Shown piece by piece: positions 15,759 through 63,904 of a stretch of DNA of 64,000 nt. The stretch is taken from NCBI GenBank assembly GCA_036149055.1, contig JAYZQJ010000248.1, positions 16,853 through 80,852 of the forward strand. Reading direction: 5' to 3'. Both the position numbers and the translations under genes were made by a program. Position 1 is the stretch's first letter. Every line of letters starts with the position of its first letter. Under the pieces are notes generated by a model that was not told where the DNA came from, ran no database searches, and saw nothing but the letters and a program-made list of their open reading frames with translations. This DNA comes from Myxococcota bacterium (lineage in GTDB: Bacteria; Myxococcota_A; Polyangia; Polyangiales; Sandaracinaceae).

Positions 15759-16357
15759 GGGGCGCTTCGGTGACTTCTTGGCTCTCGCCAAGGCGCCAAG
15801 CCGCAAAGGGGCTGACGTGGCCGCGCGATGGCGGCTCGCCGCCGGGTCCACGGCTGCAATTTATCCCTCGCAGAGGCGCAGAGACGCAGAGAACGAGGCG
15901 GGCCGCGCGATGGAGACTCGCCGCCGCGTCCGTGATCGTCCTTCGCTTGGCCAGGGTGGATCGGTGCGCTTCGGTGGCTTTTTGGCTCTCGCCAAGGCGC
16001 CAAGCCGCAAAGGGGGCGATATGGCCGCGCGAAGACGGCTCGCCGCCGGGTCCACGGATGCAATTTATCTCTCGAAGAGGCGCAGAGGCGCAGAGACGCA
16101 GAGGACGGGGCGGGCCCCGCGATGGAGACTCGCCGCGGCGTCCGTGATCGTCCTGCGCTCGGCCGGCGTGGATCGGTGCGCTTCGGTGGCCTTTTTGGCT
16201 CTCGCCAAGGCGCGAAGCCGCAAAGGGGCTGACGAGGCCGCGCGATGGCACATCGCCGCCGGGTCCACGACTGCAATTTATCTCTCGAAGAGGCGCAGAG
16301 ACACAGAGGACGGGGACGGGCCGCGCGATGGAGACTCGCCGCCGCGTCCGTGATCGC
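15759..16357. repeat. Three tandem ~204-213-bp units (left arm of a head-to-head repeat array)
   Basis: GCTCTCGCCAAGGCG recurs at 15781, 15985 and 16198, each followed by TGCAATTTATC and AGAGGCGCAGAGAC. Confidence 0.9.
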
Positions 16358-16439
16358 CCCTGTACTCGGCTCGTCGATCGGGCGCTCCTCCGTGGTCCCC
16401 AGGAGCGCCCCGCGTAGGGTCGGGCAGGCACGCCCCGGC

Positions 16440-17440
16440 CAGTCGCCATCCCGCCGCCACCCAACCCCTTGGCGGCTTGGCGCCTTGGCGAGAGCACAAG
16501 AAGCCACCGAAGCGCACCCATCCACCCGGCCGAGCGCTCGGCGACCAGGAAAGCGGCGGCCAGTCCCCAGCCCGCGGCCCGTCCTCTGCGACTCTGCGCC
16601 TCTGCGAGAGACAACATGCAAACCGGCACCCGCCGGCCAGCCGCCAGCCCGCGGCCAACCCAGCCCCTTGGCGGCTTTGCGTCTTTGCGTGAAATAATTT
16701 GCCCCCCAAGCCCTCGAAGTTCGAGAACGGCCCCCCGAGCCAGGGGAGCCGGGCACCCGCCGGCGAGCATCCATCCCGCCGCCACCCAACCCCTTGGCGG
16801 CTTGGCGCCTTGGCGAGAGCACAAAAGGCCACCGAAGCGCACCCGTCCACCCGGCCGAGCGCTGGGCGACCAGGGACGCAGCGGCCAGCCCCCAGCCCGC
16901 GGCCCGTCCTCTGCGACTCTGCGTCTCTGCGAGAGACAACCTGCAGACCGGCACCCGCCGGCCAGTCGCCATCCCGCGGCCAACCCAGCCCCTTGGCGGC
17001 TTTGCGTCTTTGCGTGAAATGAATTGTCCCCCAAGCCCTCGAAGATCGAGAACGGCCCCCCGAGCCAGGGAAGCCGGGCACCCGCCGGCGAGCATCCATC
17101 CCGCCGCCACCCAACCCCTTGGCGGCTTGGCGCCTTGGCGAGAGCAAGAGAAGCCACCGAAGCGCACCCGTCCACCCGGCCGAGCGCTGGGCGACCAAGA
17201 ACGCGGCGGCCAGCCCCCAGCCCGTCCTCTGCGACTCTGCGCCTCTGCGAGAGACAACCTGCAGATCGGCACCCGCCGGCCAGCCGCCATCCCGCCGCCA
17301 ACCCAGCCCCTTCGCGTCTTTGCGTCTTTTCGTGAAATAAATTGTCACTCGAATGCCCGCCGGCGAGCATCCATCCCGCGGCCACCCGGTCCCTTGGCGG
17401 CTTGGCGCCTTTGCGAGAGCACCAAGAGCCGCCGAAGCCT
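16440..17440. repeat. Three tandem 325-bp units plus a partial fourth (right arm, inverted relative to the left arm)
   Basis: TTGGCGGCTTGGCGCCTTGGCGAGAGC at 16469, 16794 and 17119, with a variant near 17394; it is the near reverse complement of the left-arm core. Confidence 0.9.
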
Positions 17441-45928: not shown

Positions 45929-46080
45929 TGGAGGGTTTGGGGCAAACCCTCCCCCCATGGGGCGGAGCGCCCATGGGGCCCCCCTCCCGACTCCGTCGGC
46001 GCCTCGCGCGCTTCGCGCGCTGGCGCCGCGTACCCCGGCGACGGGGCGCCGGGGGCCCTGCGGCTCGCGCTCGCGCTGTG
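45929..46080. repeat. Dispersed palindromic (REP/MITE-like) element
   Basis: GGAGGGTTTG..CAAACCCTCC hairpin similar to 63911 onward; GGGGCGCCGGGGGCCCTGCGGCTCGCGCTCGCGCTG occurs inverted at ~60744-60779. Confidence 0.65.
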
Positions 46081-46358
46081 CGCTCGCTGGCCGCCTTTCA
46101 CCGGTTCGCCACCCCGCTCGGCGGCTCCCGCTCGCGCTTTGCGCTCGCTGGCCGCCTCTCACCGATTCGCCACGGCTGCCGCCCGCGGCTCCCGCTCGCG
46201 CTTTGCGCTCGCTGGCCGCCTCTCACCGATTCGCCACGGCTGCCGCCGGCGGCTCCCGCTCGCGCTTTGCGCTCGCTGGCCGCCTCTCACCGATTCGCCA
46301 CGGCTGCCGCCGGCGGCTCCCCGCTTCGCGCTCTGCGCTCGCTCGCCGCTTCACCGAG
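46060..46358. repeat. About five tandem 61-64-bp repeats
   Basis: GCGGCTCCCGCTCGCGCTTTGCGCTCGCTGGCCGCCTCTCACCGATTCGCCACGGCTGCCGCC; units start at 46060, 46121, 46185, 46249 and 46313. Confidence 0.9.
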
Positions 46359-51156: not shown

Positions 51157-51552
51157 TCAGCCCCGTCGGCGGCGGCGGCGCTGGTGGCGGGCGATGACGG
51201 CGCGCAGGCCCTCGATCAGCTCCTCCATGTCGACCGGCTTCCGCAGCCAGCCGTCGACGCCGGCGACGAGGCCCTCGCCGAGCGGCGGGTCGTCGAGCCC
51301 GGTCAGGATCACCAGCGGCAGATCCTCGGTGCGCGGGTCGGCTCGCAGCGCGCGGCAGAGGGAGATCCCGTCGAGCTCGGGCATCGTCACGTCGGCGAGC
51401 ACCGCGTCGGGCGGCTCGGCGAGGGCCGCGTCGAGCGCCGCCTTGCCGTGCCCGACCACCACGACCCGCCAGCCCTCGGACTCGAGGATCAGCCGCAGGG
51501 CCTCGGCCTGGGTGGGGCTGTCCTCGGCGACGAGGATGGTCTCACTCGCCAT
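51157..51552 (-). CDS. Single-domain response regulator
   Basis: ILVAED, ADVTMP, LRKP. Confidence 0.85.
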   Translation of the reverse strand: MASETILVAEDSPTQAEALRLILESEGWRVVVVGHGKAALDAALAEPPDAVLADVTMPELDGISLCRALRADPRTEDLPLVILTGLDDPPLGEGLVAGVDGWLRKPVDMEELIEGLRAVIARHQRRRRRRG

Positions 51553-51928
51553 GGTCCTCGGTCGTCTCGAGCACCACGGCGGTCTGGAGCGCGTAGACCG
51601 CCGCGCCCAGGACGAGGATCACGGCGACCACCGCGACCAGCGGCAGCATCCAGCTCGGCCCCGCCCGCCGCGAGAACTGATCGCGGTAGTACCGACCGCG
51701 GCTCCGGCGGCGGATGCGGTCCTGGATCTTCGGGAGCAGGTTGGGGACCTCGATGGCCTCGGGCTCGCCCATCTTGGAGACCAGCGCGAAGGTGTCGACG
51801 AACTCGTCGTACTCGACGCGCAGCTCCTCGTCCGCGACCAGCGCCGCGTCGAATGCCTCCCGCTGCGCTTCGTCGAGGTCTCCCTCGAGCGCCTCGCTGA
51901 AGAGGTCGCGTGCCTCGTCCGACGTCAT
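51542..51928 (-). CDS. Membrane anti-sigma factor
   Basis: EARDLFSEALEGDL anti-sigma-like N-terminus; C-terminal TM helix; coupled to the ECF sigma gene. Confidence 0.7.
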   Translation of the reverse strand: MTSDEARDLFSEALEGDLDEAQREAFDAALVADEELRVEYDEFVDTFALVSKMGEPEAIEVPNLLPKIQDRIRRRSRGRYYRDQFSRRAGPSWMLPLVAVVAVILVLGAAVYALQTAVVLETTEDHGE

Positions 51929-52560
51929 GCCTTCTTCTTCAACGTAGCCTGGTGGGGGATGGACGACCGGCGGCCCTCCGCCATTCGCCGAACCTTGTCC
52001 CGCAGCGCGTGGCGCGCGCGGTGGAGCCTGCTCTTCACCGTACCCTCGGCGAGCCCGGTGATCTCCTGGATCTGCTCGTACGTCAGGTGCTCGATGTCGC
52101 GCAGGACGATCAGCGTCCGGTGATCCTCGTCGAGCTCTCCGATCGCGGCCTTGAGGATGGCCTCCTTCTGGTAGGCCTCCATCATCTCGTCGGGCCTCGC
52201 GATCTGAGAGGTCGGGTTCATCGTGGCGCTCTCGAGGGCGCCGTGCTGCGCGACCTCGTCGAACTCCTTCTTCTTCCCGCGCGCGCGGCGCTGGAGGTAC
52301 TTGATGCGGTTCTTACAGTGGTTGGTGGCCACCCGGTAGAGCCAGGTCGAGAGCTTCGAGTCGCCCCGGAAGCCGTCGATCGACTTGAAGACCGTGATGA
52401 AGACCTCCTGAGCGAGGTCCTCCGCCTCCGCGCGGTCGCCGAGCATCCGGAACACGAGGCGATAGATACGCCCCTGGTAGAGCCGGATCAGCTCGTTGAA
52501 CGCGGCCTCGTCCCGGCGCTTCAAGCGCGCGACCAGCTTCTCTTCGTAGCCGTCGGGCAT
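51925..52560 (-). CDS. ECF RNA polymerase sigma factor (RpoE-like)
   Basis: AEDLAQEVF, STWLYRVATN, YEQIQEITGLAEGTVKSRLHRAR; an alternative start at 52620 is possible. Confidence 0.92.
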   Translation of the reverse strand: MPDGYEEKLVARLKRRDEAAFNELIRLYQGRIYRLVFRMLGDRAEAEDLAQEVFITVFKSIDGFRGDSKLSTWLYRVATNHCKNRIKYLQRRARGKKKEFDEVAQHGALESATMNPTSQIARPDEMMEAYQKEAILKAAIGELDEDHRTLIVLRDIEHLTYEQIQEITGLAEGTVKSRLHRARHALRDKVRRMAEGRRSSIPHQATLKKKA

Positions 52561-52905
52561 CGGGACGTGAAAGCCTGCCGCCGCGGCCGCCTTCTCGATG
52601 TCGAACGCCACGGTCTTCACGACCTGGGCGACAACGATCCAGCGCCACGGTTCCGCGGAAGGTAGCCGTGCACGGGGCTCCCCGTAAAGCACCGACGTGG
52701 TCCCGTCGTTTCCGACGACGGCTGACGTCGATCTGCCCCCACGACCGCCTCGAACCGCCCGGATCGAGCGTGGCCCGCCGGTTGCCACTGAACGCGGGTC
52801 CGCCCGCCGGAGGGGGCGGCGATGCGGAATTCTTCGACGTTGTGGTTCGGTCCAGCGGCGCTTGGTATCAGCGATCGTCGGGCGACGGGGATCGTTCGGG
52901 CTGCC

Positions 52906-53526
52906 ATGGACGAGCCGCACGACGCGCTTCTCGAGCGCGCCCTCGGGGGCGAGAGGGAAGCGACCCGGGCGTTGATCGCGATGATCACGCCGGTGATGCA
53001 GGCGCGCGTCGCCAGGGTGCTCCTGCGGCGGAGCGTGGGTCGGCCGGTGAGGCAGGAAGTGGAGGACCTGGTGCAGGAGGGACTGGTCGCGCTCTTCGCG
53101 GACGACGCCAAGGCGCTGCGGCGCTGGCGCGTCGACGGCGGCATGTCGCTGCGCGGGTTCGCCGGGATGGTGGCCGAGCGGCGCGCCATCTCGAAGCTCC
53201 GCGCCCGACGCTGGGCCGAGGAGCCGACCGATCCCTCCGACCTCGCGTCGCCCGGCGCCGCGCCGAGCCCGGAGCAACACCTCGCCCTGCGGCAGGTCCT
53301 CGACGACGCCCTCACCCGCCTGCGCGCCGAGCTGAGCCCGCGCGCGTTCCGGCTCTTCGAGCTGCTCTGGGTGGAAGAGCAGACCGTCGAGGCGGCCTGC
53401 GCGGAGCTGTCGATGACGCGCGACGCCGTCTACCAGGCGAAGCGGCGCATCAAGAAGCTGGCGGACGAGATCGCGGCCGACCTCCAGCGCGCCACCCCGG
53501 TGCCGCCGCTCGTGGAGGCGCGATGA
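52906..53526 (+). CDS. ECF sigma factor (divergent)
   Basis: VEDLVQE region 2; LSMTRDAVYQAKRRIK region-4 HTH. Confidence 0.82.
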   Translation: MDEPHDALLERALGGEREATRALIAMITPVMQARVARVLLRRSVGRPVRQEVEDLVQEGLVALFADDAKALRRWRVDGGMSLRGFAGMVAERRAISKLRARRWAEEPTDPSDLASPGAAPSPEQHLALRQVLDDALTRLRAELSPRAFRLFELLWVEEQTVEAACAELSMTRDAVYQAKRRIKKLADEIAADLQRATPVPPLVEAR

Positions 53527-54203
53527 GCGCGGGCGACGACCTGCTGGACGAGCTCGCCGCGCAGGCCCGCGGGCCGGAGGCCGACGCGTCCTGGGAGCGC
53601 TGGGAGGCGCTCGCCGAGGGGGAGGACGATCCGTCGCTGACCGATCCCGAGCGGCGCGAGGCGCTGGCCCCGCTGAGTGACGCCACCCTCGATCGGCTCA
53701 CCGACGCGGTGATGGCGACGCGCGAGCCGAGCCCCGACGCCGAGCGGGTGCCCGACGTCGTGCCGATCGGGCGCCGCGCCTGGCCGTGGCTCGCCGGCGG
53801 GCTCGCGGCCGCCGCCGCCCTCGCCCTCTTCTTCGCCCGCCCGTCCCCGGGGGACGATCCCCTCGCCGGGTACGTGCTCACGGTCGAGGCGGGAGACCGA
53901 GCGATGCGCGGGGCCGACGACGAGGCGTCGCGTCCGCTCGGACCCGACTCGCGCTTCGAGCTCGTGCTGCGGCCGCCGACCCGGGGCGCGCGACCCGAGG
54001 TCTCGACCTTCCTGGTGCGCGACGGCGTCCGGGAGCCCTGGGCGGTCGACGTGCAGCGCGCGGAGGGGGGCGCGGTGCGCATCGTGGGCCGCGCCGCGGA
54101 GCTGTTCGGCGACCGGTCCGGGCGGTGGCGCGTCGAGGTCGACCTGCGGCTCGGCGACGCCCGGGAGTCGTTCTCCACCGAGATCGAGCTGACCGGGCGA
54201 TGA
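53523..54203 (+). CDS. Putative membrane anti-sigma factor with an extracytoplasmic beta-rich domain
   Basis: ATGA-coupled to the ECF gene; acidic N-terminus, one TM helix (WPWLAGGLAAAAALALFFA), C-terminal beta-rich domain. Confidence 0.65.
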   Translation: MSAGDDLLDELAAQARGPEADASWERWEALAEGEDDPSLTDPERREALAPLSDATLDRLTDAVMATREPSPDAERVPDVVPIGRRAWPWLAGGLAAAAALALFFARPSPGDDPLAGYVLTVEAGDRAMRGADDEASRPLGPDSRFELVLRPPTRGARPEVSTFLVRDGVREPWAVDVQRAEGGAVRIVGRAAELFGDRSGRWRVEVDLRLGDARESFSTEIELTGR

Positions 54204-56893
54204 AGCTCCGGGCGGTGCACGCGCTCGCGGCGAGCGCCCTCTTCCTCGTCCCTCCGGGCGGCGGAGAGATCCATCCGCACCTCAAGGGGGTGGCCTTCGC
54301 CGGCTGCGCCGAGGTGTCCGGCGGGCCGGTGTGTCACCTCGACGGACCGACCTCGCTGCGGCTCTGGTGGCCAGGTGAGCTGGACGCGCCGGCCGCGATC
54401 ACCGTCGACGGCGCCCCCGCCGCCGTCGTCTCGGACCGGGTGGCCGGAGGGCGGCGCGCCGTGATCGAGGTCGCGCCGCCGGCCCGCGCCCTGGCGCTGC
54501 GGGTCGAGCGCGAGGACGGCCCGCGGGTCTTCCACCTCCGGCTCGCGCCGCGCCCGGAGGAGCCGAGCCAGCTCGCCGAGGCGCGTCGGCGCAAGCTGCG
54601 CGGAGACCTCCAGGGCGCCGAAGCCGCGCTCGCCGGGTTGCCCCTCGCCGATCCCGCGATCCGCGGACGCGCGCTCTCGGTTCGCGCCAGGCTGGCGCTG
54701 GCCCGGGGCGACGGCGAGGCGGCCGCGCTCTTCCGCCGCGCGATGGACGCTCACGCGCGCAGCGGTCAGCTCTCGCACCTGGTCCGGGACGCGGTCGCGC
54801 TCGCCTTCACGCTCCACAAGCGCGGCGACCTCGACGGCGCGGAGCGCGCGCTCGATCGGGCGGCGCCGCTCCTCGACCTCGTGCCCGAGCACCGGACCGA
54901 CGTGGCCTACGAGCGCGCCGCCATCGCCTTCGACGCCGCGGCCCCATCGATCGCCCTGGAAGGGTTCGAGGAGGCGGAGCGCGCGGCGCGGAGGCTCGGC
55001 ATGGACGACGCGCGGTGGATGGCCGACGAGATGCGCGCCGCCTGCGCGATGATGCTCGGCCGTCACCTGGAGGCCGAAGAGCTGCTCGCGCGGCTGGACG
55101 CCGAGATCGACGACGAGGCGCCGTGCGTGCAGGCACACTTGCACGCGACGCGAGCCGCCATCGGGCTCCTCCGGCTCGAGGGGGGCGAGGTCGTGACCGA
55201 TCCCGGCGCCGTGGTCACCGCCGCCCGCCGCGCCGCCTCCGCCTTCGGCGCGCGCTGCCCGCGCCCGAGCAGCCAGGCCGACGCGGAGGCCACGCTCGCG
55301 CTCCTCGAGCTGCGTCGGGGCCGGACCGAGGCGGCGGCGGCCGCGATCGCCCGGGCGCGCGAGGCCGCGCCGCACATGAGCTTCGAGCTCGAGGGCTGGG
55401 TGCTCGACGCCGAGGCGAGGCTCGCGCTGGCCCGCGGCCACCGGGTCGACGCCGCGCGCCGGTTCCGGGCGCTGCGGGAGCGGGCGGAGGCGCTCGAGGA
55501 CCGCGAGTCCGCGTGGCGCGCGGCGTGGGGTGAGGCGGAGAGCGCGGAGGACGAGGCGGCGAAGATCGCGGCGCTCGTCCGGGCCGAGGCCATCGTCGAG
55601 GCGGAGCTCACCGACGTCCGGCTCGGCGAGGGCCGCGACACGCTCTCCTCTCGACGCGGCCGCACCGCCGCCGCGCTGGTGGCCGCTCACCTCGCTCGAG
55701 GCGCCCCCCGTGACGCGTTCGAGGCGGCCCGCCGAGCGCGCGTCCGGGCGCTCCGGTCCTTCGTGCGCCGCGGCCGCCTCTCGCAGCTCCCGCCCGGACG
55801 GCGCGGGGCGTGGCGGCGCGCCCTCGGTCGCTACCGCCGCGGCCGAGCGGAGCTCGACGCGCGGCTCGCCGATCGGTGGACGGTGCCCGAGCGCGAGCTC
55901 GCCGCCTTCGACGCCGAGGTGGCCGATCGGAGCCGCGGCCTGCGCCGCGCGCTCGACGACGCCTACCGTGCCCTCGGCACCGCCCCCGAGGCGGCGCCCG
56001 AGACCGCGCCCCCCGGCACCCTCCTCTGGCTCGCCCAGCGCGTGGAGGGCGGTTGGGCGCTCTTCGCCGCGCTCGACGGCGCCGTGCGCTCGGTGACCCG
56101 GTCCGCGCCGCCGCCGGTCGATCCGGAGGCGCTCGGCGAGTGGGCGTTCGCGCCCTTCGACGACGCCGTCGCCTCGGCGGAGCGAGTGGCCCTGCTCGTC
56201 CCGACCGCCCTCTCGTCGCTGGACGTGCACGCCGCGCACTGGCGAGGGGAGCCCCTGGTCGTGCGACGCGACGCGTTCTACGCGCTCGATCTGCGATCCG
56301 AGGCGGATGCGGCCGAGGGCCCGACCCTGCTCGTGATCGATCCGGGCGGGGACCTCCGCGGGGCCCGGGAGGAGCACGCGGTGCTGGCGCGATCGCTCGG
56401 AGACCACGCGCTCGCGCTCTTCGGCGACGCGGCCGACCGGGCCGCGGTGCTCCGGGCGCTGGCGGGCGCGTCGACGCTCCACTTCGCGGGCCACGCGAGC
56501 GCCTCGGGGCCGCGCGGATGGGACGGCGCGCTGGAGCTGGCCGGGGGCACGCGGCTGGGTCCGGCGGACGTGCTCGCGGCGGCGGCGGTTCCCGAGACGG
56601 TGCTGCTCTCCGGCTGCGAGACCGCGCGCGGCGACCGCGCGGCCGGGGACGTGCAGAGCGTCGGCCTCGCGCCCGCCTTCCTGCTGGCCGGGAGCCGAAC
56701 GGTGATGGCGACGAGCCGACCGGTCTCGGACGAGGCGGCGGCGGCGCTCGCCCGAGCCCTCGGGCCGCGGGTGGCGCGCGGCGCGGTCGACAGAGAGGTG
56801 ATGCGGAGCGCGATCACGTCGCTTCGCGGAGCGCACCCCGACGAGTGGAGGGCGTACCACGTCCTGGTCGCGGGTCTTGGAGGAGAGCGATGA
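54200..56893 (+). CDS. TPR-CHAT (caspase-like) protease
   Basis: Signal-like N-terminus; long TPR-like helical region; CHAT catalytic motifs LHFAGHA and LLSGCET; GLAPAFLLAG. Confidence 0.85.
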   Translation: MKLRAVHALAASALFLVPPGGGEIHPHLKGVAFAGCAEVSGGPVCHLDGPTSLRLWWPGELDAPAAITVDGAPAAVVSDRVAGGRRAVIEVAPPARALALRVEREDGPRVFHLRLAPRPEEPSQLAEARRRKLRGDLQGAEAALAGLPLADPAIRGRALSVRARLALARGDGEAAALFRRAMDAHARSGQLSHLVRDAVALAFTLHKRGDLDGAERALDRAAPLLDLVPEHRTDVAYERAAIAFDAAAPSIALEGFEEAERAARRLGMDDARWMADEMRAACAMMLGRHLEAEELLARLDAEIDDEAPCVQAHLHATRAAIGLLRLEGGEVVTDPGAVVTAARRAASAFGARCPRPSSQADAEATLALLELRRGRTEAAAAAIARAREAAPHMSFELEGWVLDAEARLALARGHRVDAARRFRALRERAEALEDRESAWRAAWGEAESAEDEAAKIAALVRAEAIVEAELTDVRLGEGRDTLSSRRGRTAAALVAAHLARGAPRDAFEAARRARVRALRSFVRRGRLSQLPPGRRGAWRRALGRYRRGRAELDARLADRWTVPERELAAFDAEVADRSRGLRRALDDAYRALGTAPEAAPETAPPGTLLWLAQRVEGGWALFAALDGAVRSVTRSAPPPVDPEALGEWAFAPFDDAVASAERVALLVPTALSSLDVHAAHWRGEPLVVRRDAFYALDLRSEADAAEGPTLLVIDPGGDLRGAREEHAVLARSLGDHALALFGDAADRAAVLRALAGASTLHFAGHASASGPRGWDGALELAGGTRLGPADVLAAAAVPETVLLSGCETARGDRAAGDVQSVGLAPAFLLAGSRTVMATSRPVSDEAAAALARALGPRVARGAVDREVMRSAITSLRGAHPDEWRAYHVLVAGLGGER

Positions 56894-58989
56894 AGCACGC
56901 ATGGATCTGGCTCGCGGTGGCGCTGACGGGATGCGTCGTCGACGCGACCGGCGCGATCGGCCTCGGCAGCACGAGCGACGCCGACGGTGACGGCGACCCG
57001 GACGGAACGGACTGCGCGCCGCTCGACCCCACCATTCACCACGGCGCCCCCGAGGCGTGCAACGAGGTGGACGACGACTGCGACTACGTCGTCGACGAGC
57101 CCACGGGCGGCAGCTACTGCGTGCCTCTTCGCGACGCGCCGACCTGGGCCGACCAGTGCCTCGACCACGTTCAGGTCGGGCGGCTCGCGGCCCCGGGGAG
57201 CGGCTGCCCGGCGCCCGGCGGCGCCTGGACGGTCCGCAGCCTCTTCGCCGCGGTGACCGGACGAGGCGGGGCGGGCTACTGCGTCTACGAGCACCCCGAC
57301 CCTCGAGAGGCCGACGTCTCGCTCCTCCCGCCCGACGCCGGCCGGCCCGCGTCGGACTGGCTGGCCCCCGACTGCCTCGCGGTCGCCCCGCTGACCCCGC
57401 CGACCCTCGCCGAGCAGGTCTCGGCCGCGGTGTGGGAGGACTACTTCGACGGCTGGCTCGAGCAGTCCGAGTGGGAGCCGCGCCTGCCCAGCTCCGGCGT
57501 CGGTGGCGCGTCCCTGCCGGCGCGCGCGGCGCACGTGGCGGTGCTCGACAGCGCGCCCCCGAACGGCGGCTTCGCGAGCCCGGCCGCCTCCACCCGCGGA
57601 TCCATGTCGCGTCACGGCGCGGCGATGGGCCTGCTCGTCCAGCACCTCGCCTGCCCCGAGGGCCGCGCCGGCGGTCACTGCGTCGCCGACTTCAGCAACC
57701 ACGTCGCGCTCGCGTCCACGCCGAGCGGCGGCTCGCGGCGCAGCGAGGGCGGCGCGATCGGGATGTTCCACCAGGTGGCGGAGGCCGTCGACGAAGCGGT
57801 CGGGGTGCACCGCGCGCGCTACCCCGCGCAGCCCTTCGTGCTGGTGCTCTCGATCGGCGCGGACGCCTTCTATCAGGCCGCGCACACCGGTGACCGCCCG
57901 GCGGCCGACGCCCTGATCGACGCGCTCGAGGACGCGGTCTGCGCCGAGGACGCCATCGTGTTCGCGGCGTCCGGCAACGAGACGGGCGGCCCGCACCCCG
58001 CGAGCGGCCCGATGATCCCGGCCGCCTGGACCTCCCGGACCACCCGCTGCGGCCGGCCGCTCGTGGTGCCGGTGGGCGGCGTGGATCCGCTCGACCGGGA
58101 CATCCGGAGGCAGCGCGACGGGGCGCGCCCGGAGCTGGTCGCGCCAGCCCGCAGCGTCGCCCTGGATCTGGCGAACGGGGCCGGGAGCCCGGAGCCGAGC
58201 GCGCTGATGACCGGCACCTCCTTCGGGCCGGTGGCGGCGGCGGCGGCCACCGCCGTGCTCGCCGCCTACGCACCCCACCTGAGCCGCGACGACCTCGTCG
58301 ACGCGCTCTACGACGCGTCGACTCCGCTGGGCCGCGGCGCGGCGGAGTTCTGCGCGACGACGAGCTGCCGCGTCACCCGGCGCCTGTCGATCTGCGGCGC
58401 CCTGCTCCACGCGCGCGACCTCGCCTGCGATCTCGCCGCGACCGAGCCGCTCTGCGGGCAGACCTTCGCCTGCGAGTCGAGGCGCGTGGCCGCCGGCGCG
58501 GGCGCGGCGGTGGTCCCGTCGCCCATCCCCGGGCCGGGCGTGGTCGGAGACGCGTCGATTCTGACCGACGTCGTCAGCTCACCGTTCTGCACCGGCACCA
58601 TCCACGCGTACGCGCCGGCGCTGCCCGACCACCCGGATCTCTGCCCCTTCGACCAGTACGGCACGAGCCACGGCGGTCCGGGCTTCGGGCCTCAGCCCGA
58701 CCCCGTCGGCTGCCGGGTGTGCGCCCTCGACCCGAGCGCCGGCGAGCTGGTGATGGCCCTGAGCGAGAAGTTCACGGGGGGAACGCTCCATCCCCCGACC
58801 CTGGTCACCTCCGAGGGCGACAAGATCTATCTCGGTAACGTGATCTCGGGTCCGCTCTCGTTGGGCGAAGAGTACGAGATCGACAACCTCGACGTGGACG
58901 AGAGCTCCGACTGGGCGGTCCTCTACTTCACCGTGAAGAACGACGACGGTGAGAGCTGGTCGCAGATGGAGGAGATCGAGGTCTGGTGA
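56890..58989 (+). CDS. S8 (subtilisin-like) serine protease lipoprotein with a Cys-rich MopE-like motif
   Basis: Lipobox LTGC; DADGDG and CNEVDDDCD; catalytic triad VAVLDS, HGAAM and GTSF; oxyanion-hole motif AASGN. Confidence 0.82.
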   Translation: MKHAWIWLAVALTGCVVDATGAIGLGSTSDADGDGDPDGTDCAPLDPTIHHGAPEACNEVDDDCDYVVDEPTGGSYCVPLRDAPTWADQCLDHVQVGRLAAPGSGCPAPGGAWTVRSLFAAVTGRGGAGYCVYEHPDPREADVSLLPPDAGRPASDWLAPDCLAVAPLTPPTLAEQVSAAVWEDYFDGWLEQSEWEPRLPSSGVGGASLPARAAHVAVLDSAPPNGGFASPAASTRGSMSRHGAAMGLLVQHLACPEGRAGGHCVADFSNHVALASTPSGGSRRSEGGAIGMFHQVAEAVDEAVGVHRARYPAQPFVLVLSIGADAFYQAAHTGDRPAADALIDALEDAVCAEDAIVFAASGNETGGPHPASGPMIPAAWTSRTTRCGRPLVVPVGGVDPLDRDIRRQRDGARPELVAPARSVALDLANGAGSPEPSALMTGTSFGPVAAAAATAVLAAYAPHLSRDDLVDALYDASTPLGRGAAEFCATTSCRVTRRLSICGALLHARDLACDLAATEPLCGQTFACESRRVAAGAGAAVVPSPIPGPGVVGDASILTDVVSSPFCTGTIHAYAPALPDHPDLCPFDQYGTSHGGPGFGPQPDPVGCRVCALDPSAGELVMALSEKFTGGTLHPPTLVTSEGDKIYLGNVISGPLSLGEEYEIDNLDVDESSDWAVLYFTVKNDDGESWSQMEEIEVW

Positions 58990-59043
58990 GATTTTCGTCG
59001 CGCCCACGTCAGATCCGGCGTGGTCGCGGCGAAGTCCTCGGCG

Positions 59044-60084
59044 ATGCCCAGACACTCGACGGTCACCCCGCTCCACGACTTCGAAGCCCCGTTCCCGGGC
59101 GAGGCGCCTCCCGAGCTCGCGCGGCCGGAGGAACGCGAGGCGCTCGCGTGTCTGCGGGCGGGGCTGCCGGTCCTGGTCCTCGGCGAGAGCGGTGTCGGGA
59201 AGACCCGGGTCGCGCGGGCGCTCGCCGAGGCGCTCGGGCGCGGTCCGGTCGTGCGGGCCACGCTCGGGGCGAGCGACGACCTCAACACGATCACCAGCGA
59301 GCTCTTCGGGCACGAGCGCGGCTCCTTCAGCGGCGCGCTGAGCGCCCGCGAGGGCCTGGTCGCGCAGGCACACGGCGGCGTGCTGATCCTCGACGAGGTC
59401 CTCAACCTGCCGCCCCACGCCCAGCAGCTCCTGCTCGACTTCACCCAGTTCGGCACCTTCCGTCCGCTGGGCCACCGGAGCGCCGAGCCGCTCCACGCCG
59501 ACGTGCGCCTCATCGCCGCGACCCACGGCGACCTCGGCGCCGCGGTGCGCGAGGGTCGATTCCGCGAGGACCTCTATCACCGCCTCGCGGGCGCGGTGCT
59601 CCAGGTCGCGCCGCTGCGCGCGCGGCGGAGCGAGATCCCGGAGATGGCGCGCGAGATCCTCGCCGGTGAGCGGCCGCCGAACCGCCTGAGCGAGGAGGCC
59701 CTCGCGCTCCTCGCGTCGCCCGATCACGACTGGCCCGGCAACGTGCGCCAGCTGCGCTCGGTGATCCTCCGGGCTCGGGCCCGCGCGACGATGCGCGGCG
59801 AGCTCACGCTGGGCCCCAGCTGCTTCCCCGAGCTCGGCGGCCCGTCCCCCGCCGGACGTGCTCCCGTCGAGGGCGACATCGGCGGTCGCTTCGAGCGGCT
59901 CGAGCAGCAGCGTGCCGAGCTCGACCGGGAGGAGGCCCGCCTCATCCGCGCCAGCCTCCAGAAGTGGGGCGGCGTCATCAGCCGCGCCGCCAACGAGATG
60001 GGCATGAAGCGCACGAGCCTCATCAGTCGCATGAAGTGCCTCGACGTGCCCCGCTGGCCCGACGGATCACCCCCCGGTCGCTGA
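59044..60084 (+). CDS. Sigma54-interaction AAA+ activator with Fis-type HTH and no N-terminal regulatory domain
   Basis: GESGVGKT, SELFGHERGSFSGA, LILDEV, FREDLYHRL, WPGNVRQL, C-terminal HTH. Confidence 0.85.
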   Translation: MPRHSTVTPLHDFEAPFPGEAPPELARPEEREALACLRAGLPVLVLGESGVGKTRVARALAEALGRGPVVRATLGASDDLNTITSELFGHERGSFSGALSAREGLVAQAHGGVLILDEVLNLPPHAQQLLLDFTQFGTFRPLGHRSAEPLHADVRLIAATHGDLGAAVREGRFREDLYHRLAGAVLQVAPLRARRSEIPEMAREILAGERPPNRLSEEALALLASPDHDWPGNVRQLRSVILRARARATMRGELTLGPSCFPELGGPSPAGRAPVEGDIGGRFERLEQQRAELDREEARLIRASLQKWGGVISRAANEMGMKRTSLISRMKCLDVPRWPDGSPPGR

Positions 60085-60112
60085 CCGCGCGCCCTGGCCC
60101 TACCATGCCCTC

Positions 60113-60588: not shown

Positions 60589-60840
60589 CGACGACGCCAG
60601 TCCAGGCCGCCCGCGAGGACGGGACGACGCCAGTCCAGGCCGCCCGCGGGGACGGGACGACGGCAGGCGACGAGCGAAGCGAGGTCGCCGCACGCACCAC
60701 CCCACTCGTCCGATCCCGCGGCAGCGGGCGGCCAGCTCGCGCGCAGCGCGAGCGCGAGCCGCAGGGCCCCCGGCGCCCCGCCGCCGGGGTCGGGGCCGAG
60801 CGGAGCGAGGCCCCGGAGTGGGTGGGGGGGCCCCGCGGAG
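60589..60840. repeat. Intergenic 33-bp tandem duplication plus an inverted copy of the REP-like element
   Basis: GACGACGCCAGTCCAGGCCGCCCGCG x2; CAGCGCGAGCGCGAGCCGCAGGGCCCCCGGCGCCCC is the reverse complement of 46043-46078. Confidence 0.65.
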
Positions 60841-62482: not shown

Positions 62483-63904
62483 ATGCATCACCTGTGGGAA
62501 TCCGCTCTCTCGACGCTTCGGGGCCGGCTCTCGGAAGAGAACTACCGGACCTGGCTCGAGCCCGTCCAGCTGGACCGGCTCGAGGGAGGGACGGTCACCC
62601 TACGGATCCCGAACCGTTTCTACGCGGACTGGATCAGCACCCACTACCTCGACCTCATCCTGGAGTCGCTCAGCCACGAGTCCGGCGTGGACACGCTCGA
62701 GGTCGACTGGCTGGTGGACGAGAAGCTGCAGCAGATGCTCGACCGTCGCGCCGACGAGGCCCGCCGTGAGGAGCAGCAGGAGCGCGCGCAGCAGCAGCAG
62801 CGGCCGAGCGCCGAGGCGCCGCGGGGCCCCCGCAACAGCGCGCCCCCGCCGCAGCCGCCCTCGCACCCGCCGGCCGACAGCGGCCTGAACCCGAAGTACC
62901 GGTTCGACAACTTCATCGTCGGTCCTTCGAACCAGCTGGCGCACGCGGCGAGCGTCGCGGCCGCGTCCAGCCCGGGCACCCGCTACAACCCGCTCTTCAT
63001 CTACGGCGGCGTGGGGCTCGGCAAGACGCACCTCGTCAACGCGGTCGGTCACCGCGTGCGGCAGGACAAGCCCGACGCGCGCGTGCTCTTCCTGAGCGCC
63101 GAGCGGTTCACCAACGAGTTCATCTGGGCGCTGCAGAACCACCGCATCGACCAGTTCCGCGAGCGCTACCGCACGAGCTGCGACGTCCTCTGCATCGACG
63201 ACATCCAGTTCCTCGCCGGTCGTGAACAGACGCAAGAAGAGTTCTTCCACACCTTCAACGCGCTCTACCACGCCGACCGCCAGATCGTGGTCACCTCCGA
63301 CGTCTACCCGCAGCAGATCAAGGAGATGGAGGAGCGGCTGATCAGCCGGTTCCAGTGGGGCCTCGTCGCCGACATCCAGGCGCCCGAGCTCGACACGCGG
63401 ATCGCCATCCTCAAGAAGAAGGCGGAGCAGGAGCAGATCCCGCTCGACGACGACGTCGCGTTGATCATCGCGCAGAAGGTGCAGAGCAACGTGCGCGAGC
63501 TCGAGGGCACGCTCCTCCGCCTCGCCGTGAAGGCCGAGCTCACCAACAACCGCATCGACGTCGACTTCGCGCGGGACGCGCTCGGCACCGTCGTGCCTCG
63601 CCTCGAGAAGCAGACGACGGTCGAGGACATCCAGCGCGCGACGTGTGAGTACTTCAACCTGCGCCTGAGTGATCTGAAGTCGCACCGCCGCCACCGCGCG
63701 GTCAGCTTCCCGCGCATGGTCGCGATGTACGTCAGCCGTCAGCGCCTCAAGCTCAGCTACCCGGAGCTCGGCGACCGCTTCGGCGGCAAGGACCACACGA
63801 CGGTCATGAGCGCGGTGAAGAAGATCGGCGGCCTGCTCGACAAGGACGACGAGGACGTGAAGAACGCCGTCGCCGCCATCGAGCGCAAAGTCGGCTTCAG
63901 CTGA
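62483..63904 (+). CDS. dnaA: Chromosomal replication initiator DnaA
   Basis: YNPLFIYGGVGLGKTHL, IDDIQF, QEEFFHTFN, SRFQWGL, FGGKDHTTV. Confidence 0.98.
   Translation: MHHLWESALSTLRGRLSEENYRTWLEPVQLDRLEGGTVTLRIPNRFYADWISTHYLDLILESLSHESGVDTLEVDWLVDEKLQQMLDRRADEARREEQQERAQQQQRPSAEAPRGPRNSAPPPQPPSHPPADSGLNPKYRFDNFIVGPSNQLAHAASVAAASSPGTRYNPLFIYGGVGLGKTHLVNAVGHRVRQDKPDARVLFLSAERFTNEFIWALQNHRIDQFRERYRTSCDVLCIDDIQFLAGREQTQEEFFHTFNALYHADRQIVVTSDVYPQQIKEMEERLISRFQWGLVADIQAPELDTRIAILKKKAEQEQIPLDDDVALIIAQKVQSNVRELEGTLLRLAVKAELTNNRIDVDFARDALGTVVPRLEKQTTVEDIQRATCEYFNLRLSDLKSHRRHRAVSFPRMVAMYVSRQRLKLSYPELGDRFGGKDHTTVMSAVKKIGGLLDKDDEDVKNAVAAIERKVGFS

Follow-up and report, generated by a model that had tools for sequence, protein, structure and literature searches.

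Predicted control of an ECF sigma factor by a separate, putatively exported TPR-CHAT protease in a Myxococcota bacterium

The DdvS/DdvA system of Myxococcus xanthus combines a sigma factor of the extracytoplasmic function (ECF) type with a single-pass anti-sigma factor and a periplasmic TPR-CHAT part that carries a His-Cys dyad (PMC11506125; 8rot, 8rw5; published work is cited from excerpts throughout). According to this source, DdvA lacking its outer domain is cleaved by RseP; the periplasmic CHAT part was proposed to be the site-1 protease but could not be tested as such there; and many DdvA homologs lack neighbours from cyclic oligonucleotide-based antiphage signalling systems (CBASS) or CRISPR-Cas (table S7). 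Here we analyse a comparable arrangement at positions 52906..58989 of a 64,000-nucleotide (nt) stretch, referred to as a whole as the window, from a Myxococcota bacterium of the Sandaracinaceae (assembly GCA_036149055.1, contig JAYZQJ010000248.1). The cassette encodes an ECF sigma factor, a predicted anti-sigma factor, a TPR-CHAT caspase-like protease and a subtilase-family (S8) lipoprotein. From the evidence on this cassette, all of it computational, we consider it rather probable that the sigma factor is held by the single-pass anti-sigma factor and that the separate, exported TPR-CHAT protein serves as site-1 protease, cutting the outer immunoglobulin (Ig)-like domain of the anti-sigma factor after Arg129.

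The cassette shares with DdvS/DdvA the ECF sigma factor, a predicted single-pass anti-sigma factor, a TPR-CHAT protein with a DdvA-related His-Cys dyad and the phylum Myxococcota. It differs in that anti-sigma factor and TPR-CHAT are two open reading frames, divided by a stop codon within an ATGA overlap, and form one chain only in a single natural fusion among the relatives. Moreover, its anti-sigma factor carries no CHCC zinc motif and has, on the outside, an Ig-like domain in which an Arg is conserved, an S8 partner is present, and no CBASS or cas genes were found near the cassette. DdvA is described in the excerpt without a three-helix motif, to which the long helices (503-590) that precede the CHAT core in the model of the TPR-CHAT protein may be equivalent. 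An earlier sequence-only reading of this DNA had taken the Csx29/Csx30 pair of type III-E CRISPR loci as its model; by both profile and fold, the best analogue is instead DdvS/DdvA, with DdvA (8rot/8rw5) as the closest solved protein ahead of Csx29 and separase (profile match of the CHAT family, 8.3e-17 for DdvA vs 3.5e-07 for Csx29).

In type III-E systems, too, a sigma inhibitor is the substrate of a TPR-CHAT protease, and motifs bound by the sigma factor (CASP-sigma) lie in its own locus (PMC10028731; PMC9729208), but Csx29 is cytoplasmic, is activated by RNA via Cas7-11 and cuts after Met or Leu. The DegS/RseA/RseP pathway likewise uses a separate envelope site-1 protease, a single-pass anti-sigma factor and a site-2 protease (PMC10028731), whereas the cassette would supply a dedicated site-1 enzyme of its own, a cysteine protease of clan CD. 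ECF54 sigma factors adjoin a subtilase and a TPR-CHAT gene, and proteolytic control has been proposed for them (PMC7826278 supplement; PMC8999054); the combination of sigma factor, subtilase and TPR-CHAT is therein already listed, without an anti-sigma factor. As described in these excerpts, however, ECF54 is 100% actinobacterial, has no putative anti-sigma factor, carries a carboxypeptidase-regulatory-like gene at +1 and has the predicted promoter GTATCAG / CTCC. The cassette, in contrast, belongs among Myxococcota relatives, encodes at +1 a transmembrane (TM) protein without a carboxypeptidase-regulatory-like Pfam family and has the motif GTCAGA-N15-GCG[A/T]A; the window contained a lone GTATCAG at 52865 with no CTCC at ECF spacing. 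On these comparisons, the cassette would work like DdvS/DdvA and DegS/RseA but appears to belong to none of the DdvA, ECF54 and type III-E groups; from ECF54 it is set apart by taxon, neighbours and promoter. In a literature search that left subscription journals largely outside, no paper on the split system came up. GTCAG and TCAGA were absent from the examined part of the ECF supplement (PMC7826278), and later ECF groups may bear on novelty.

All four frames, encoded on the + strand, are open, and the ATGA overlaps at 53523, 54200 and 56890 by which they had been read as one unit were borne out. A predicted promoter at 59008 and a fifth gene at 59044-60084 are additions to these four genes. 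In each of two other public runs, a single contig covered the region 52700-60100 without a gap, one with 40 and the other with 47 differences; the cassette is therefore no assembly artefact. Among the strain differences in coding DNA, 33 of the 37 classified were silent, including one in the Arg129 codon, and 23 further differences fell outside the classified set. At least half of the sequence words of this region were present in 16 public DNA runs from nine studies, one possibly being the source, mostly of seawater or marine samples, and the four RNA runs searched yielded short, scattered, low-depth contigs only, uninformative on expression.

The first gene (P0001, 52906..53526, 206 amino acids (aa)) encodes a divergent ECF sigma factor, as had been claimed: it matched Sigma70_r2 (4.1e-08) and scored above the cut-off of TIGR02937. 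It is the sole family member found in the genome, and its closest solved sigma factor is ShbA (9isn, 1.2e-11). The product of the second gene (P0002, 53523..54203, 226 aa) had been described as a single-TM protein with an external domain, which agrees with its one hydrophobic stretch (86-104, mean 1.63) and the Ig-like C-terminal domain of its model. That model, with a predicted local distance difference test score (pLDDT) of 82, consists of four N-terminal helices (helical part 3-66), the TM helix and the Ig-like domain (112-226; Ig fold Z up to 9.3). Members of its look-alike cluster in the Atlas carried zf-HC2 in 64% of cases (score 0.91), and comparison with the neighbouring zf-HC2-like protein of the divergent gene set gave a weak match (E 0.05). 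Fold searches with whole P0002 were filled by matches to the Ig domain, none informative on the N-terminal part, and the genome held two regex matches to zinc anti-sigma domains, too few members for a profile comparison. Homology of the Ig domain with the N-terminal beta domain of the CHAT protein was considered and rejected (hhalign probability 0.3). Judged by position, topology and promoter pattern, P0002 likely holds the sigma factor as a membrane anti-sigma factor.

The third gene (P0003, 54200..56893, 897 aa) is the only CHAT gene found in the genome. It matched PF12770 (4.7e-21), and its His and Cys motifs proved as intact as first read, with H765 (codon at 56492, second His of HFAGH) and C806 (codon at 56615) kept in 72/72 homologs reaching the domain. 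The model (pLDDT 89.7) shows a beta domain (30-117), TPR helices, a long helical hairpin (532-590) and the CHAT core. The signal-like N-terminus corresponds to a hydrophobic h-region at 8-18 (2.11). Within the CHAT family, 36 of 54 members have lipobox-like starts according to a crude regex, and the Cys pairs C36/C45 and C309/C353 of P0003 are kept in 25-26 of 29 homologs. These signal or lipobox starts and conserved Cys pairs lend some computational support to the envelope location proposed earlier, and the TPR-CHAT protein is predicted to be exported.

When CHAT residues 24-893 were paired with the outer part of the anti-sigma factor (103-226) in a single pairing job, the predicted complex scored 0.66, compared to 0.00 for the best of three control pairs. 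The score mark separates solved complexes (116 of 157 attain it) from mismatched pairs (2 of 215), rates that are only rough with the alignments used here. Contacts agreed to at least 81% across complex runs, with a partner pLDDT of 81. The predicted interface comprises the hairpin tip (560-567), 714-723, H765, C806 and 841-847 (including D844) on the CHAT side and 116-118, 124-130, 148-155 and 178-189 on the anti-sigma side; the Ig domain is accordingly predicted to dock over the CHAT active site and the hairpin tip. Together with conservation, this complex gives computational backing to the earlier claim that the CHAT protease acts on the TM protein.

Conservation draws attention to Arg129 (codon 53907..53909), which conservation and the predicted interface suggest as the P1 residue of a CHAT cut between R129 and G130. 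Of 73 anti-sigma homologs, 71 keep it and 68 have a G, S or A next to it on the C-terminal side; in 72 its loop lies 18-27 residues beyond the post-TM Pro. Residues 129-132 form the least confident loop of the P0002 monomer model. Among 46 anti-sigma factors outside the folding set, the four most conserved Ig positions (G183, R129, P151, Y117) all fall inside the predicted interface. On the opposite side, acidic residues near the CHAT site are common to most homologs (D714 in 69/72, D718 in 56/72, D844 in 70/72). In MALT1, Arg is bound by Asp365 and Glu500 (PMC4357240); D714/D718, on the loop past the first strand, and D844, about 38 residues past the Cys, take the places of these two residues, matched by position only. 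D714, D718 and D844 could serve Arg binding, resembling Arg-specific clan CD enzymes. The only homolog without the equivalents of both Arg129 and D844 is the natural fusion (L064).

To survey the gene neighbourhood within the phylum, we called genes in related loci with six-frame profiles. A P0003 search, whose initial step was a stricter one, found matches in at least 22 of 201 genomes of the order, and all 37 outside match places were taken. To avoid anchoring on CHAT, a sigma-alignment search was run over 301 genomes of the phylum; it matched 26, and 53 places beyond the CHAT set were taken. The 37 CHAT-anchored loci held an anti-sigma gene in 27 cases, sigma in 24, S8 in 21 and all four genes in 14. 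In the 53 sigma-anchored loci, 46 had an anti-sigma gene (beside sigma), 36 CHAT, 33 S8 and 31 all four, and among the 40 of these with full flanks the respective counts were 37, 28, 27 and 27. The proposed unit is thus co-conserved, with all four genes in 45/90 related loci; these counts include kin and are not independent, several loci coming from one family. Including the window, the 46 four-gene loci showed 16 gene orders, of which the window's was the commonest (17). The relatives are Myxococcota, also by the taxa of the Atlas, and a single locus came from a pattern-based search that started from P0003.

One of the loci (L064, 4352-10201) encodes a 955-aa natural fusion of anti-sigma, TM, Ig, TPR and CHAT parts, placed behind sigma and before S8. 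Because this protein fuses them, the functions of anti-sigma factor and CHAT protease are tied in a DdvA-like layout. In six further loci (L102-L105, L109 and L114), a sigma gene is paired with an anti-sigma gene that follows the promoter motif and retains the Arg, and no CHAT gene lies within ~7 kb. Since five of the six genomes have CHAT cassettes elsewhere, these pairs may be served in trans.

A motif search on raw upstream DNA returned coding-sequence echoes only; the promoter emerged from the intergenic set alone. From this intergenic DNA we read the motif GTCAGA-N15-GCG[A/T]A and counted it as GTCAGA-N15-GC[GA]NA. At spacer 15, it gave 35 matches in 27 of the 90 related loci, compared with 0-3 at spacers 11-14 and 16-20. 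Cassette genes are faced by 21 of the 35 sites, namely anti-sigma by 13 (often from inside the sigma 3' end), S8 by four, sigma by three and CHAT by one; the others precede genes for trypsin-like, RCC1-repeat and unnamed exported proteins, apart from a few without evident target. The best-scoring site of the genome, GTCAGA-N15-GCGAA at 59008..59033 (+), lies just past the S8 stop, with 36 nt from the motif start to the start of P0005. This fifth gene (59044..60084, +, 346 aa), the predicted target, encodes a sigma-54-type AAA+ activator (Sigma54_activat, 4.9e-40) with a Fis helix-turn-helix and no sensor domain. In another genome (G088), the likely start of an unlinked P0005 ortholog, 66% identical and sensor-less too, is preceded at 35 nt by the exact motif, which provides an independent check of the motif. 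All seven sites retrieved there were intergenic, each followed after 35-99 nt by a gene in the same orientation, while in a genome in which no CHAT match was found (G036) all three sites lay inside genes. A 515-aa P0005 paralog with an N-terminal extension is located elsewhere in the window's own genome (contig C168, 5202-14217), between a Ser/Thr kinase-like gene and a gene for a 984-aa lipoprotein; the latter is 47% identical to the RCC1-repeat lipoprotein that follows a cassette promoter in G088. That P0005 might be a truncated copy of this paralog was rejected because the G088 ortholog is sensor-less too.

The fourth cassette gene (P0004, 56890..58989, 699 aa) alone stayed below the Pfam S8 cut-off (19.4 vs 21.8 bits). 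Its family profile matched solved subtilases at up to 1.1e-22, with the triad and oxyanion Asn in subtilisin order, and the earlier identification as a lipoprotein subtilase with a Cys-rich part stands: D220, H242, N363 and S444 are invariant in 18/18 aligned proteins, the lipobox Cys is Cys15, a MopE-type motif occupies 41-70 and the C-terminal part is Cys-rich. P0004 is the only family member found in the genome. Elsewhere, one locus (L043, 2898-6999) has two tandem cassette-type S8 genes after CHAT, and in another (L067, 3-2141) an S8 catalytic part and the middle, TPR-containing part of a CHAT homolog share one open frame, which may be a misassembly or a recombinant.

Several observations count against cleavage of the anti-sigma factor by CHAT and the signalling built on it. 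P0002 has no Pfam family, 0/24 anti-sigma homologs matched any anti-sigma Pfam family, the HxxxCxxC zinc motif is absent from the anti-sigma alignment and P0002 has no Cys at all. The lipobox Cys is missing from P0003 and its nearest homolog. The complex prediction yields contacts, not geometry: Arg129 was not seen in an S1 pocket, the best-resolved contacts are those of hairpin 560-565 with 148-154 and 178-186, and familiarity of the predictor with protease-substrate complexes may account for part of the score. Taken together, interface positions showed no significant excess of conservation over the others (p = 0.16). Csx29 K670 has been equated with the Arg-binding D2151 of separase (PMC9729208), and we rejected D844 as the separase S1 Asp: it aligns with Csx29 S666, not K670, and the D2151/K670 column, four residues past D844, holds Ala in P0003. 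DdvA also carries Asp at the D844 position. Joint loss of Arg and D844 is a single case, and one unfused anti-sigma factor (L145) has Met in place of Arg, yet its CHAT keeps the D844 Asp. Distances of anti-sigma and CHAT correlated at 0.40, no better than other pairs (0.43-0.62), a mirror-distance test that was uninformative. No further fusions appeared among 8000 longer candidates or in 401 genomes, which is weak evidence. As to the promoter, 9 of the 35 sites are among those from which the motif was read, and over whole genomes spacer 15 gives 3-17 sites, a range that overlaps the 2-11 of spacer 17; with counts so near background, the regulon is presumably small. The window has no motif upstream of or inside the sigma gene, and autoregulation and S8 induction are therefore not indicated for this copy. 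Activators of sigma-54 usually carry the motif GAFTGA. P0005 has GSFSGA in its place, which makes sigma-54 activation by it uncertain.

The same predicted contacts and conservation would fit an inhibitor, in which case the Arg loop would be a pseudo-substrate or tether in the CHAT site, the resting complex would shield the anti-sigma factor, and the signal would be dissociation or a freed CHAT protease cutting other envelope proteins. A precedent is the gingipain prodomain, whose Arg126 enters the S1 pocket in an orientation ill suited to cleavage (PMC4357240), although in the same excerpt this Arg is itself finally cleaved. The L064 fusion lost the Arg and yet keeps the dyad, so some substrate besides the Arg loop may exist. 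However, the small residue after Arg and the 18-27 residues between the post-TM Pro and the loop suit a site-1 cut, and we regard a pseudo-substrate role as unlikely, if the strongest of the alternatives. Site-1 cleavage by CHAT would also fail if the protease were not exported in this lineage or if the cassette were decaying, so that the Arg loop is never reached. The missing lipobox Cys, short internal deletions in the window's sigma and anti-sigma relative to the homolog alignment, and the lack of an autoregulatory motif would agree with this, but P0003 retains the hydrophobic N-terminal stretch and the four paired Cys, strain differences are mostly silent and all catalytic residues are intact, making non-export or decay very improbable.

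The sequence-only reading had placed the S8 enzyme upstream, proposing that it or its product activates CHAT through the TPRs; in a variant, S8 makes the first cut. This order has some appeal, as S8 accompanies the sigma factor in 33/53 sigma-anchored loci and in 27/28 CHAT-holding ones with long flanks, CHAT and S8 are commonly adjacent, both proteases are predicted to be exported, an induced S8 could feed back positively and two-protease cascades are known, SAVED-CHAT acting before PCaspase (10.1101/2023.06.23.546230). Yet S8 is present in no more than half of the long CHAT-anchored loci (12 of 24), and nine long loci carry sigma, anti-sigma and CHAT without it. In five genomes with this three-gene core, two of them single-contig, subtilase matches were no better than 7.6e-11 over a partial profile, although the scores of divergent S8s from cassettes can fall almost to this level, and one (L150) was missed by the profile and seen in the PADLOC scan. 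Finally, S8 is itself headed by the predicted sigma promoter motif in four loci, and so are trypsin-like and other exported genes. The claimed activation of CHAT is hence not supported, and an upstream S8 appears improbable. Its absence from nine core loci and the motif in four suggest an induced exported protease, that is, the S8 lipoprotein is probably a frequent but dispensable output and not the trigger, which could still feed back on CHAT.

Links to CRISPR or other defence systems were not apparent. In line with the earlier claims of CRISPR independence and of missing cas genes and arrays, none of 10 repeat families in the window was a CRISPR-like array and the 96% complete genome contained no Cas1, the search not extending to Cas7-11. 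Among 148 sampled flanking proteins (of 259), 11 matched PADLOC, none of them cas or CBASS, with no control set for comparison; most of these matches fell to unspecific domains (kinase, AAA, cyclase or subtilase), in addition to three candidate families. The window itself shows housekeeping genes around the cassette and no GC break. Divergent from the cassette and sharing its 285-nt upstream gap, 51157-52620 (-) encodes a second, conventional SigW/RpoE-like ECF sigma factor, its 128-aa TM partner, which is zf-HC2-like, and a stand-alone receiver domain. A gene at 62483-63904 (+) we take to be dnaA-like. Dense imperfect direct repeats of 31-47 nt at 15819-17418, within a 1.75-kb gap without called genes, are REP-like rather than CRISPR-like, and four intergenic 64-nt tandem repeats lie at 46058-46321, with related sequence near 60700.

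Returning to CHAT as site-1 protease, an envelope signal would be sensed by the beta/TPR part and align the His-Cys dyad. CHAT would then cut the anti-sigma factor between R129 and G130, leaving a stub of ~25 residues that an RseP-type protease could cut within the membrane, as for truncated DdvA; M50 proteases are present in the genome. The freed sigma factor would transcribe GTCAGA-N15-GCG[A/T]A promoters, giving more anti-sigma factor as feedback, S8 and other exported proteins, and in the window would turn on the sensor-less P0005, relaying the signal. As a whole, we hold only tentatively, at somewhat short of even chances, the picture of a two-chain envelope caspase switch in which an exported, Arg-specific TPR-CHAT is pre-docked on the Ig domain, cuts between R129 and G130 when its TPRs sense an external protein cue, and so turns on secreted proteases and the sensor-less sigma-54 activator.

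The listing of the gene combination for ECF54 limits the surprise. What the split form offers is an enzyme apart from its substrate, with a named residue, promoter and target gene, which brings the site-1 question within reach of a test on two purified proteins plus a reporter. If this reading is correct, the system would provide a programmable trio of protease, anti-sigma factor and sigma factor for synthetic use. It would also contain the first demonstrated caspase-like site-1 protease, an unfused counterpart of DdvA, and would make caspase-like proteases ordinary envelope signalling enzymes outside phage defence.

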